From contig JAZRKN010000015.1 in the NCBI GenBank assembly GCA_045646345.1, forward strand, positions 160,001-224,000: a stretch of 64,000 bases of DNA, in the 5' to 3' direction. Positions 3,410-52,324 of this stretch are shown here, one piece after another. The first letter of the stretch is position 1; each line of letters starts with the position of its first letter. A program made the position numbers and the translations under genes. The notes below the pieces were generated by a model that saw only the letters and a program-made list of their open reading frames with translations, did no database searches and was not told the DNA's origin. This DNA comes from Candidatus Scatovivens sp. (GTDB lineage Bacteria > Bacillota > Clostridia > TANB77 > CAG-508).

Positions 3410-4132
3410 CTATTCTTCTATTTCTGGTCCATTTTCTATATTGGGTTGATTATTATTTTGTATAAAATTTTGTGTTGCATTTAACTCTGAAAGAACTTCT
3501 TGCATATCTACTTTTAACATATTTTCTTTACTAGATTTTATAACATGAGCAACCATATTTTCTTTGCCTAATAATGTTTTTTTAGATTTTTCAATTTTAG
3601 GATCATCAAAATTTCTTTCTGGAACTTCTTCTAGACTTTGAGGCAACTTTACATTATCTAGTTGTGCTTCTCTTACACTGTCTGCCATTAATTTAAAAAT
3701 TTGTTCACAATTTTCCATCTTTGCATATACACTTAAAGTTGTTATTGTCCTTGTAGGACTTAAATTCTCTTCTGTAAAAGAATTTGGGAAATTTTTTATA
3801 AGATGTTCTCTATCTTTTTTATACTCTTCTTCTGTATCAAAAAAATCATGTAAAAAATCAATTTTACAATTCAAATCACTTTTTATTAATTGTTGTGCAA
3901 GGTACATTGCCATTTTTCTTGAATTATCATCATATAATTCATACGATATATATGGATGTCCAGTATCTCCACCACAACAAGCATATGATAAAAAACCATT
4001 TTCATATCCTACATTTAATAATTCTTCTAACGCTTCCGATCCTTCAGCCCATTCATGAAACGCTATTTTTCTTTCATCTGCTGAAATAGTATTAATATCT
4101 ATCGGAACACCTGTGTTATATTTTCCTTCCAT
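3410..4132 (-). CDS. Hypothetical protein with YACCGG motif and N/Q-rich acidic C-tail
   Basis: 240 aa ORF, AGGAG SD, host-like composition. Confidence 0.7.
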   Translation of the reverse strand: MEGKYNTGVPIDINTISADERKIAFHEWAEGSEALEELLNVGYENGFLSYACCGGDTGHPYISYELYDDNSRKMAMYLAQQLIKSDLNCKIDFLHDFFDTEEEYKKDREHLIKNFPNSFTEENLSPTRTITTLSVYAKMENCEQIFKLMADSVREAQLDNVKLPQSLEEVPERNFDDPKIEKSKKTLLGKENMVAHVIKSSKENMLKVDMQEVLSELNATQNFIQNNNQPNIENGPEIEE

Positions 4133-4237
4133 AGCTTGTCTACATCTCCTCTAATACAAAAACATCATTTATTTTATATTAATTCTACATTATATTATTA
4201 AAAAAATCTATATTTTATAAATATTTATTATTTAATC

Positions 4238-4271
4238 AAAAGAGAGGAACTCCTATTTTGAAGTTCCTCTC
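4238..4271 (-). terminator. Intrinsic terminator of the alpha-CTD-like gene
   Basis: GAGAGGAACT/AGTTCCTCTC stem followed by U run on the minus strand. Confidence 0.75.
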
Positions 4272-4297
4272 CTTTCCTTATTTACACGGATATTTCT

Positions 4298-4609
4298 TTA
4301 GCTTTCTTGATTAACTACTTTCTTGTAGCCATGTCTTCCATTTTTTGCCTCTCCTCTGTTGTATCTTTCCCAATAAGCAATTTGACCTGCTCTTGTATTG
4401 GGATGTAAAACACCAATTTCTGGTCTTTCGAGTGGTTCAAGTCCCATTGGAACTCTCACTACTTGGTTAATCACTTCAATTGCTCCATGTCCAATATTTC
4501 TTACCTTTAAAAGCTCTTTGTAGGACATTTTTTCTACCTGTTCATCGGTTCTAATTCCATGTCTGAACAATGGTGTTTTGATGTGTGTAGGAAGTTTTTC
4601 AATAAACAT
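4298..4609 (-). CDS. Stand-alone RNA polymerase alpha-CTD-like (HhH) domain protein
   Basis: LFRHGIRTDEQVEKMSYKELLKVRNIGHGAIEVI resembles the alpha-CTD consensus; GGAGG SD; own TTGACA-17-TATAAT promoter. Confidence 0.7.
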   Translation of the reverse strand: MFIEKLPTHIKTPLFRHGIRTDEQVEKMSYKELLKVRNIGHGAIEVINQVVRVPMGLEPLERPEIGVLHPNTRAGQIAYWERYNRGEAKNGRHGYKKVVNQES

Positions 4610-4833
4610 AGGGTCTACCTCCGTGGTATGTGCAGTATGGCTTAGCGCTCATACGAAACTTAAATTGTATCATATCAATTATAGCATCATTTCTTATTTA
4701 TGTCAACTTGATGAATTTGTTTACTTCTTTTTAGCAAAAAAAAAGAAGATTTCATTCGAAATCTTTCTATGTTAACCTACTCTATCTGGAGTATGTAATT
4801 TAATTACTATAAATAATAATATTATTTATTTTT

Positions 4834-50320: not shown

Positions 50321-50442
50321 AAACATTAATATATTACTACTTTTTTCCCCAGTTGTCAAGCATTTTTATTATTTTTTATGTCTTTTTTATAAAAAAGAAC
50401 AAAGGGGATAAAAAATCTTTTGCCTTCCCCTTTGTTTTTTGA

Positions 50443-51099
50443 TTATTGGTCTTTTACAAGTGTACATTTCTTTTTTCTGATTGTTGCTACTTTTTCCTTC
50501 AGTCTGAAGTAATAGAAAAGTTTTCTTAATACATCTTGATATTCTTTCCATTCTTCAATACAGTCATCCATATCATATAAATGAAGGCATTTTCTTTCAA
50601 CTTTAGGAATCAGCATTCTTGCTCCTCTTGCTCTTTCTTCAAAAGAAAGTTTGCAACCATCTTGAGTCAAAAGCATACATGGATCTCCTTTTAACTTTTT
50701 ACTCGAAACAGTTGCTATACCAGTTTTCCTGGTTCGTGTGCGTAAGATGTAGAAATACTTTCCTGTTGCCTTAGAACTTTTAAACGTTGACTCAACTATA
50801 TCTCCTGGAAAACTTACAATAGATATATATTGTTTTTCTTCCAGCAGTTTTTTCATAGCCTTAAACGAAAGTTCTTCAAAATCTCTAGGACTCCAATGAC
50901 ATGGTGCCCTTAGACAACACCGACCTCCACATTCTTCACAAATTTCAGGTTTCTCTGCTCTTTCATTCTTGTATAATTCCAATACCTTTTGGCGATAAGC
51001 TTCTGGATTTTTGCAAATTTCATCGATGATTTCAAACAATTCGTTATCCACTTTATCTTGTCCGAAAATCTTTATCAATGTTTCTCGACTTTTGTCCAT
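50443..51099 (-). CDS. Cys-cluster (CxxCxxxCC, YkgJ-like) protein
   Basis: CEECGGRCCLRAPC and PCMLLTQDGCKLSFEERA. Confidence 0.7.
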   Translation of the reverse strand: MDKSRETLIKIFGQDKVDNELFEIIDEICKNPEAYRQKVLELYKNERAEKPEICEECGGRCCLRAPCHWSPRDFEELSFKAMKKLLEEKQYISIVSFPGDIVESTFKSSKATGKYFYILRTRTRKTGIATVSSKKLKGDPCMLLTQDGCKLSFEERARGARMLIPKVERKCLHLYDMDDCIEEWKEYQDVLRKLFYYFRLKEKVATIRKKKCTLVKDQ

Positions 51100-51242
51100 T
51101 TTTTTATAATTAGCACCTCCAAAAGTACACTTCAAAAAAGACTTCCATCCTATTTTAACACACTTTCAACAATTTTTCAATTATGTAAATCTATTTTAAA
51201 ACAACAAAAAACCCTTTTCAAAAGAAAAGGGCATTTTATATT

Positions 51243-51854
51243 TTATTTTTGTGTCGCTTTATTTTTTCCAAATATTGCAAATATTTTTTCTTTTAATTTT
51301 TCAAAAAATGATTTTGGAGTATTATCACTATTTGTTGGTAAATTATTTGTTTGAGAACCGCTTTGTGATGTTTCTTCATTAATAACATCAGTATAATCTT
51401 GAATATCCTCATTTTGAACTGCATATTGAGAATATCTTTGAACCGCTCTTGGTTTTGTAAAATCTTCTTTTTCTAAATCTTCTTCTGATTTTACAACTGT
51501 TGCAGATGCATTATCAAATAATTTTTCCACACTATATTTTTCACGCATTTGTTCATCTAATTTTTCTTGATTACGAAGCATTCTTCCATAAAGTTCTTTT
51601 TTTCTTTCTTCATCTTCACACCAATATTTTAAATGTAATAATGCAATTATTTCCAAAGCATATCTTTGTAACCCTTGTTTTTGTAAAGGTACATATGGAT
51701 TTACTTTCACTTCATATGTTGGGTCTTTGTAAGATTCAAAAAAATCCAACATTTTTTTTGGTACTTTTTCTACATATTTAGAATTCATATGTTTAATTAT
51801 ATAATCTACTTCTGCATATGCTCGTATATCATCTAATGTAATTACAACACTCAT
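51243..51854 (-). CDS. Conserved-looking hypothetical protein
   Basis: GGAGG SD; AYAEVDYII...IIALLHLKYWC; amphipathic tail SFFEKLKEKIFAIF. Confidence 0.75.
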   Translation of the reverse strand: MSVVITLDDIRAYAEVDYIIKHMNSKYVEKVPKKMLDFFESYKDPTYEVKVNPYVPLQKQGLQRYALEIIALLHLKYWCEDEERKKELYGRMLRNQEKLDEQMREKYSVEKLFDNASATVVKSEEDLEKEDFTKPRAVQRYSQYAVQNEDIQDYTDVINEETSQSGSQTNNLPTNSDNTPKSFFEKLKEKIFAIFGKNKATQK

Positions 51855-51883
51855 TTGTAATCCTCCAAAATCTTTAGTATTTA

Positions 51884-52324
51884 TTATCTTTCTACATTAT
51901 CTTTATTTGCTTCTATTCCAATCTCAGCTTTTCCGTTTTCTAAAACTTCGTTTACAATTTGTTCTGCTGTTCTAGAGTCTTTTTCTAATGCTTTTTGTTG
52001 TTCAGTAACTTTTTGACCTGCTTCTATCGTTGCATTTAGATTAGTAGATTCTGCATTTTCAAGAGATGCATCTAAAAGAGCTGCTTCATCTTTTGAACTC
52101 ACAACAGTTTCTGCTGAATATTTAGCAACTAATATAAGTCTTTCTGTTACAGACTCCATTTTTTCTTCGCCAATCCATCCTGCAAATGTATATGTCATCA
52201 TATTTGTTGGTTCTTTTGTTGGAGTTTGTCCTTTATATTCAACTTTATCTCCACTATTAACCATTTGTCTATCTAATACAGTTGTCTTATCATCATCTAA
52301 AAAAATTACTTCGTATTGTTCCAA
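51884..52324 (-). CDS. InlB B-repeat-like domain protein with charged C-tail
   Basis: YEVIFLDDD...PTKEPT...YTFAGW...LVAKY; GAGGAGG SD before TTG. Confidence 0.7.
   Translation of the reverse strand: MEQYEVIFLDDDKTTVLDRQMVNSGDKVEYKGQTPTKEPTNMMTYTFAGWIGEEKMESVTERLILVAKYSAETVVSSKDEAALLDASLENAESTNLNATIEAGQKVTEQQKALEKDSRTAEQIVNEVLENGKAEIGIEANKDNVER

Follow-up and report, generated by a model that had tools for sequence, protein, structure and literature searches.

Why should several unrelated proteins of a gut Clostridia genome end in similar polar, charged tails? The question is raised by the window analysed here, a stretch of 64,000 nucleotides from Candidatus Scatovivens sp. (contig JAZRKN010000015.1; G000:C15:160001-224000 in our numbering). 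Its genome, G000, comprises 1.79 Mb in contigs of mostly 27-28% GC, and we take it and the relatives that carry the VirD4-like protein discussed below to belong to the uncultured Clostridia order TANB77, following their GTDB placement. A sequence-only reading of the window had proposed that the C-termini of six proteins are signals recognised by a VirD4-type coupling protein of a chromosomal type IV secretion system (T4SS). We find that the tail class is real, anchored to the protein end, lineage-biased and expanded in this genus, and that the tails are appended or swapped modules. On sequence evidence it is reasonably likely that they act as coupling-protein secretion signals of an effector repertoire that feeds a core chromosomal T4SS.

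The six proteins are named here by the first coordinate of their genes (Table 1). All of the quoted C-termini (for example NAKDKDERNDR of 4834) are present where they were placed and letter for letter; the motifs IWTLSP and VWDLSL, put at about 40 residues from the end, lie 38 and 44 residues from it, and none of the six has an N-terminal signal peptide by a crude hydropathy rule. That the proteins are orphans fails for 4834, whose PfkB match is strong (Pfam E=7.5e-51). The idea of one common tail class stands for five of the six, which pass version 1 of the model described below (threshold 0.62), with scores of 1.40 for 3410 and of 0.78 and 1.04 for 22020 and 51884, both outside the training set; it does not stand for 15804 (0.29), whose xPEL end recurs in some ribokinase homologues.

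Patterns picked by eye gave an apparently sharp distinction in this genome, a [DE]R end being found in 14/435 orphan and 1/429 shared proteins, and such post-hoc regular expressions did not replicate in G038 (a genome from a different family of the order, 1.095 Mb compared), in G171 (300 kb of 1.2 Mb), or in 78 VirD4-centred loci, pattern D excepted in the last. Since eye-picked patterns fail in G038, we built externally trained models and relied only on these; an unsupervised alternative, started from the six proteins, ended up selecting acidic tails of a generic kind and was not used. For this we fitted a logistic model to the final 45 residues of proteins, with a training set of 187 de-duplicated tails that homologues carry in other genomes, drawn from the families of 14256, 3410 and 4834 after homologues of less than 400, 200 or 330 amino acids (by family) and near-duplicate tails had been dropped. 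The negatives of version 1 were 776 outgroup proteins taken from 18 Clostridia of other orders (about 1 Mb in all; two loci under 5 kb dropped), with a 1% threshold, and those of version 2 were conserved TANB77 proteins, which leaves the outgroups unseen. From the 1512 G000 proteins called by a custom script, those of at least 80 residues were scored as shared when BLASTP gave E<1e-10 over at least 50% of their length in G038 and as orphan when it gave no match at 1e-5, and soluble proteins were separated from membrane proteins by hydropathy. The counts leave out shorter proteins, weak BLAST classes, the three G000 members of the training families and predicted membrane proteins, the last being counted apart; the orphan set also takes in housekeeping genes missing from G038, and the test is therefore diluted.

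Version 1 flagged 52/432 orphan and 20/429 shared soluble proteins of G000 (p=1e-4), 12/201 and 5/395 in G038 (p=0.003), and 5/61 and 1/97 in G171 (p=0.03). With version 2 the G000 figures were 41/432 and 13/429 (p=1e-4), so that the predicted enrichment of tails over the background of core proteins is indeed present, and in other Clostridia there was no excess (4/304 orphan versus 4/217 shared; 3/194 in the AT-rich subset). When the scored window was shifted 40 residues inward, flagged G000 orphans fell from 52/432 to 13/381. A model trained on the 14256 family alone recovered 12/26 and 18/50 tails of the two other families, and cross-recall was uneven when the training set was the ribokinase family alone (23/111 and 1/26) or the 3410 family alone (43/111 and 6/50). 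Asp and Glu make up 31-39% of residues at positions -2 to -7, and Arg is common only at -1 (27%).

The modular nature of the tails is seen within families. In the ribokinase clade of 4834 (homologues of 41-99% identity) the chain runs a median of 22 residues past the last PfkB motif (range 15-75), compared with 13 (6-18) in ordinary ribokinases, and a polar acidic tail is carried by 43/88 of the clade and 0/28 of the latter; among orthologues acidic and Arg ends interconvert, and the final residues persist even where the linker is longer by as much as 60 residues. The N-domain of 3410 is conserved in 42 homologues, and their last 60 residues are of several unrelated types, one of them with S-W-E-L; an atlas look-up with this family gave a single lead at 0.77, under the acceptance bar. 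Elsewhere a tailed HD protein adjoins an untailed paralogue of 39% identity.

In the family of 14256, residues H112, E113, H116 and E144 are invariant in 96 sequences, of which 16 give SprT-like matches. The last 90 residues of 14256 comprise a basic amphipathic helix, LP(S)G, a flexible linker, a W/F-x-L-S-x-EE helix, a polar linker and an acidic end, and most tails of 111 full-length relatives (<50% identity) follow a similar plan, in which a basic amphipathic helix, frequently with LP(E/S/A) after it, precedes a short helix module and a polar linker leads to the acidic end. An alignment-based AlphaFold model (mean predicted local distance difference test score, pLDDT, 86) predicts a folded body, disorder at residues 443-471 and 495-510, and a confident helix at 477-494; a single-sequence fold (pLDDT 38) was unusable. 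Foldseek returned no match to the model at E<=0.001, the best hits of a VIA fold search were helical bundles (Z 9.0) with zinc peptidases at Z 6.7-6.8, and a homologue search with the tail alone found only itself. The family is patchy, being found in 12/121 genomes of the order, with up to five matches in one genome, and in 0/192 other Clostridia (genome G134 was left unscored in the 192-genome counts of this family, the VirD4-like protein and the pilins). Three tandem paralogues lie at G335:C9:6845-11363, in a genome of another family.

The W-x-L-S shared by two of the six tails is not supported as the signal. As a genome-wide motif it was rejected: 14/1512 proteins carry W-x-L-[STD] within 75 residues of the C-terminus, only three of them being tail-bearing orphans, and the nearest 14256 orthologue (L240) is without the W. 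Relatives of 14256 do show an excess of W-x-L-[ST], with 10/111 tails compared with 0.003 per internal window, and the motif is thus one optional sub-module.

The chromosomal type IV system that the sequence-only reading presupposed does exist, outside the window, at G000:C14:133442-157354. This VirB locus encodes seven tandem VirB2-like pilins (six of them above the PF18895 cut-off), VirB4 (above the PF19044 cut-off), several extended VirB6-like proteins whose matches are weak and below cut-off, a wall (peptidoglycan) hydrolase with glucosaminidase, G5 and SH3 domains, a PrgI-like product of a small gene recognised by size and position only, and a protein weakly like the VirB4 N-terminus; the VirB gene order is the same in G038. 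VirB4 was found in 117/121 genomes of the order, nearly always as a single match, and at least four PF18895 matches in 7/8 order genomes, compared with three or fewer in any of 192 others (23 of these have one to three, some inside long open reading frames). Since VirB4 is so widespread and mostly single, and no integrase or relaxase is among the called neighbours of the locus, it does not resemble a patchy integrative conjugative element (MPF_FATA).

Coupling-protein genes lie apart from virB4 (contig C14), on C15 and C11. The divergent VirD4-like gene at 54730 was found in 41/41 relatives and in 0/192 other-order Clostridia at E<=1e-40; the Walker motifs of its product are conserved in 50 sequences, and a PDB sequence search with its alignment gave no match. 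A second, canonical VirD4 of the CD1115 family (G000:C11:129170-131231; 424 bits, over cut-off) occurs in 40/41 relatives, and the claim that the 54730 protein is the receptor of the tails is unsupported, the canonical protein being equally core. Complex prediction for the VirD4-like domain and the C-terminal half of 51884 scored 0.00 against a mark of 0.32 and gave no answer for this one pair. In family f2 all four genomes (G025:C91, G029:C27, G033:C1, G037:C9) carry two tandem VirD4-like copies.

The flagged orphans of G000, 55 in number, have a median length of 371 residues, compared with 230 for other orphans, and are spread over 14 contigs among core genes. A small adjacent open reading frame accompanies 6/55 of them and 12/227 other orphans; such neighbours are rare, and toxin-immunity pairs are therefore not the rule. 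We picked 39 tailed proteins by hand from outside the window: 26 are without a Pfam match, five match below cut-off and eight above it (three HD, HAD, lipase, BadF kinase, helicase and LRR); one tailed protein of 1916 residues was scanned over its first 1285 only. Pfam gave no match to XVIPCD in 45 tailed proteins or 96 members of the 14256 family.

Relaxases are known coupling-protein substrates. The ends of Gram-positive MOBP relaxases (such as D-D-F-E-I, D-I-E-R and G-P-E-R) resemble the tails, and 4/7 exceed the 1% threshold with two more at 0.39 and 0.59, in a control of seven proteins whose C-termini are not proven signals; among MobC-like proteins 1/5 passes.

On these findings it is likely that the tails are recognised by a VirD4-type coupling protein, which feeds a few dozen soluble, lineage-specific proteins into the core T4SS. 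The docking handle would be the flexible acidic end, rich in Asp and Glu and closing with R, G-R or E-I-x, and an optional upstream helix module (W/F-x-L-S-x-EE, F-D-x-x-Y-x-V or others) may give specificity or bind an adaptor. The substrate would then pass through VirB4 and VirB6 and a VirB2 pilus to reach a contacted cell; enzymes that might act there include metallopeptidases, a lipase, sugar kinases, and hydrolases of the HD and HAD types. By analogy with Patescibacteria the preferred target would be a bacterial partner, which is the weakest step of the proposal. Between orders the tails and the machine co-distribute, the tails being rare and the machine not found outside TANB77; within the order the machine is universal and tail numbers vary by genus.

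Several observations weigh against a secretion signal. Tails are far scarcer in genera with the same machine (version 2 flags 9/201 orphans in G038 and 3/61 in G171), and the [DE]R end is found in 0/201 G038 orphans. Conserved G000 proteins are also positive (13-20/429), so that the model in part measures generic polar acidic disorder, and some flagged proteins are plain false positives with generic acidic ends. Many members of the ribokinase clade have a short tail or none, and 4834 is the sole PfkB BLASTP match in its genome. Profile hidden Markov models of the inner tail modules found no significant match between unrelated families. The nature of the relaxase control, the link of a Replic_Relax protein to the T4SS and the MOBV relaxase of a small integrated element, both described next, count on the same side.

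The machine might be a domesticated DNA-transfer apparatus, in which case the tails would be coupling-protein signals of helpers co-delivered to kin during DNA transfer or island mobilisation and not of host-directed effectors. VirB4 and VirD4 resemble the CD1110 and CD1115 conjugation families, the tails are like those of relaxases and of an ArdC-like protein, a MOBV relaxase is present on an integrated element, and Pfam finds Replic_Relax in 32/41 relatives (the G038 copy is missed by Pfam yet present); in this family its gene neighbours that of the divergent coupling protein, and in G038 it is found where the VirB operon ends. However, the Replic_Relax match spans only the N-terminal half of the protein in most genomes, the protein has no tail, and the acidic residues that we presume to form its nuclease motif are missing in G000 and G038, the motif being apparently degenerate; moreover, the tailed proteins are mostly metabolic or unassigned enzymes scattered over 14 contigs, not DNA-processing ones. 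No MOBP or MOBT relaxase was found in G000, and no relaxase relatives in viral contigs. We consider this explanation unlikely. The MOBV relaxase lies with an integrase-like gene on a small element (G000:C1:223643-228671) that adjoins a divergent tRNA-Gly gene (below) and could be mobilised by the chromosomal T4SS.

Also improbable, in our judgement, is that the tails have nothing to do with secretion and are disordered acidic extensions of a generic kind, or handles for degradation or for chaperones, acquired by young, fast-evolving genes of this genus. The positive housekeeping proteins, the lack of a strict motif or of a profile match across families, and the uneven tail frequency among genera would all fit such an origin; outgroup orphans, those of AT-rich genomes included, show no excess, terminal residues stay the same while the linker varies by up to 60 residues, and the terminal architecture recurs in 111 relatives of <50% identity, which argues the other way. 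Finally, export by another route, through the type IV pilus or type II secretion system (T2SS)-like machinery of the window (PilC-like and PilN-like genes, 31433-36834) or a sporulation-linked channel (spoVA genes, 39236-41109), is very improbable, since T2SS-type substrates normally require a Sec or Tat signal first and the tailed proteins appear to be without one, the tail likeness is to relaxase ends, and no EssC of a type VII secretion system was found above cut-off.

Frame breaks at CGGA occur in the canonical VirD4 gene and in the S1-domain gene beside Replic_Relax, among others (Table 1). At 4/5 junctions examined, homologues read on across the CGGA at which the frame breaks, in most cases with Gly; at the fifth it is the reference gene that is broken. 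Reading CGGA as one glycine makes the S1 frame (267 residues; the G038 homologue has 257) and the canonical VirD4 frame (686 residues) whole. At loci of the family the stop is no more than 40 codons away from 69/91 in-frame CGG codons, and A follows 59; the pattern recurs in G171 (10/11) and not in G038 (12/50), G057 (6/60) or G047 (11/67). No tRNA-Arg(CCG) was found in G000, which has a third, divergent tRNA-Gly (G000:C1:228598-228671, minus strand) with the loop C-U-U-C-C-G-A, whose UCCG can pair with CGGA; the arm of this tRNA is present in 19/25 same-family genomes and 1/16 others. Natural four-base decoding of CGGA as a single glycine is thus probable, and we did not find it described in the accessible parts of the literature searched.

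Other features of the window touch the tails less directly. Protein 51884, conserved in close relatives (18/78 relative loci), has a weak Listeria-Bacteroides repeat match (Flg_new E=0.002, below cut-off). Next to its gene a 203-residue protein (51243-51854, minus strand; 19/78 relative loci) ends in a basic amphipathic helix like that before many tails, without the acidic end. The type IV pilus genes and spoVA genes were recognised by Pfam; the pilus-like cluster, on the minus strand, includes T2SSF/PilC and a weak PilN match, and type IV pili of TANB77 have already been described (PMC11680825). Two tandem orphan genes (42554-43971, minus strand), encoding 211 and 222 residues and related by eye, have no Pfam match, and the segment 46001-48000, with three short orphan reading frames, has 37% G+C compared with about 27%.

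Table 1. Positions of the tailed proteins, T4SS-related genes and CGGA frame breaks. Coordinates are those of the window unless a contig is given.
Feature	Position	Strand	Description
240-aa lineage-specific protein (3410)	3410..4132	-	Residues 1-175 form a conserved N-domain; swappable C-module of about 60 aa, end GPEIEE; no Pfam match
PfkB (ribokinase-like) sugar kinase with acidic-Arg tail (4834)	4834..5862	-	Tail about the last 22 aa, 4837-4902
510-aa predicted zinc metallopeptidase-like protein (14256)	14256..15788	-	HExxH and downstream Glu
92-aa orphan (15804)	15804..16082	-	End HEPEL; directly upstream of the 510-aa gene; weak class member; no Pfam match
232-aa orphan (22020)	22020..22718	+	Glycine-rich hydrophobic N-half, VWDLSL, Q/T-rich linker, end EEEDEINM; no Pfam match
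146-aa protein (51884)	51884..52324	-	Upstream of the VirD4-like gene; helical conserved C-half, end D-N-[VI]-E-R
Divergent VirD4-like coupling protein (54730)	54730..57099	+	N-terminal membrane segments, Walker A GVSGSGKT, Walker B FLYIDE; TraG-D_C E=4e-11, over cut-off
Replic_Relax (MOBC-like) protein	57772..58707	-	PF13814 E=1e-6, N-terminal part only; untailed (score -0.33)
S1-domain protein	58723..59527	-	S1 matches; accompanies Replic_Relax, in G038 also the VirB operon; two frames split at CGGA 59146-59149
CGGA frame breaks	59146-59149; G000:C11:129170-131231; G000:C1:31847, 157806, 159635	- (window)	

How the proposed signal compares with known ones can be judged from the accessible portions of the papers cited here. 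T4SS effectors usually bear variable C-terminal signals without a strict consensus, and those of Agrobacterium, Legionella, Xanthomonas and Bartonella resemble the TANB77 tails in that the C-terminus is unstructured and either charged or rich in Gln, that a folded or helical module frequently precedes it, and that the cargo is unrelated (PMC10025392). The TANB77 tails differ in being net acidic with a terminal R or E-I-x, and in belonging to a monoderm host with no outer-membrane core complex. The Agrobacterium Arg signal is a C-terminal positive cluster, unlike the acidic positions -2 to -7 here. The Legionella E-block is a Glu-rich block near the C-terminus, and the TANB77 tails are rich in Asp and Glu by composition, the published motif model aside. 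Xanthomonas effectors have an XVIPCD of about 120 residues and an adjacent immunity gene, neither of which is typical of the tailed proteins by the Pfam and neighbour counts above; the Bartonella signal is a BID domain with a charged tail (PMC10025392), and no BID Pfam match was found. Unlike the MOBP relaxase ends, the tails here are carried by dozens of chromosomal non-relaxases with no mobile element around. The T4SS of the Streptococcus suis 89K island is likewise Gram-positive and proposed to export a protein effector (PMC12857230); its island is mobile and lacks a pilin array, and a single substrate has been reported, whereas the TANB77 T4SS is core to the whole order.

The closest likeness is to Patescibacteria, whose T4SS have arrays of pilins, coupling proteins encoded at a distance and few relaxases (PMC12102498), and for one of which, that of Southlakia, an essential role in epibiotic growth is reported (PMC10633639). 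Both they (Saccharibacteria; Southlakia epibionticum SEML1_0006-0019) and TANB77 have a chromosomal monoderm MPF_FATA-like T4SS with tandem divergent VirB2-like pilins beside virB4 (PMC10633639, PMC12102498, PMC12857230), TrsD-like and VirB6-like genes, coupling proteins encoded at other sites, apparently no canonical relaxase linked to the system (the Replic_Relax and MOBV genes of G000 aside), and a reduced genome without purine synthesis (PurM and PurL gave no match in G000). The two machines match in gene layout. TANB77 differ in being spore-forming Clostridia with genomes of 0.9-2.2 Mb that keep pyrimidine synthesis (dihydroorotate dehydrogenase is present in G000), and in the presence of two coupling proteins, both core, and of a class of candidate substrates. 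Patescibacteria are given as the sole monoderm case with VirB2 pilins in a December 2025 review, which describes the dedicated translocation of effectors by Gram-positive T4SSs as a question that has long stood open (PMC12857230), and the available text of PMC10633639, PMC12102498 and PMC12857230 describes no secretion signal for the Patescibacteria T4SS. We found no description of the TANB77 T4SS or tails in the accessible parts of the literature searched, most subscription journals being outside our reach: the main text of PMC11680825 (supplements apart) has 'secretion' once only, as a domain label, and in the text available 'Clostridia' is absent from a 2026 preprint on RNA-feeding Patescibacteria (10.64898/2026.06.21.733656) and 'TANB77' from PMC12306168.

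The parasitic lifestyle implied by the sequence-only reading stays conjectural. In its full form, that TANB77, a widespread order, are contact-dependent parasites or epibionts in which a convergent, Patescibacteria-like, pilus-bearing T4SS injects dozens of genus-specific, tail-tagged enzymes into partners, the proposal is tentative, and we hold it to be possible rather than probable. The lineage is uncultured, and its clade has been linked with immunotherapy response (title of PMC11680825); no RNA run was among the listed sequencing runs that carry these sequences, and the DNA runs were gut metagenomes. A machine of this kind is carried by a whole order of gut Clostridia, and with it come candidate substrates that can be listed computationally and a short peptide signal open to in vitro testing even though the organism is uncultured. 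If the proposal is correct, monoderm effector T4SSs would gain in the tail their first predictable secretion signal, and the finding would suggest why TANB77 are uncultured and how, by co-culture, they might be grown.

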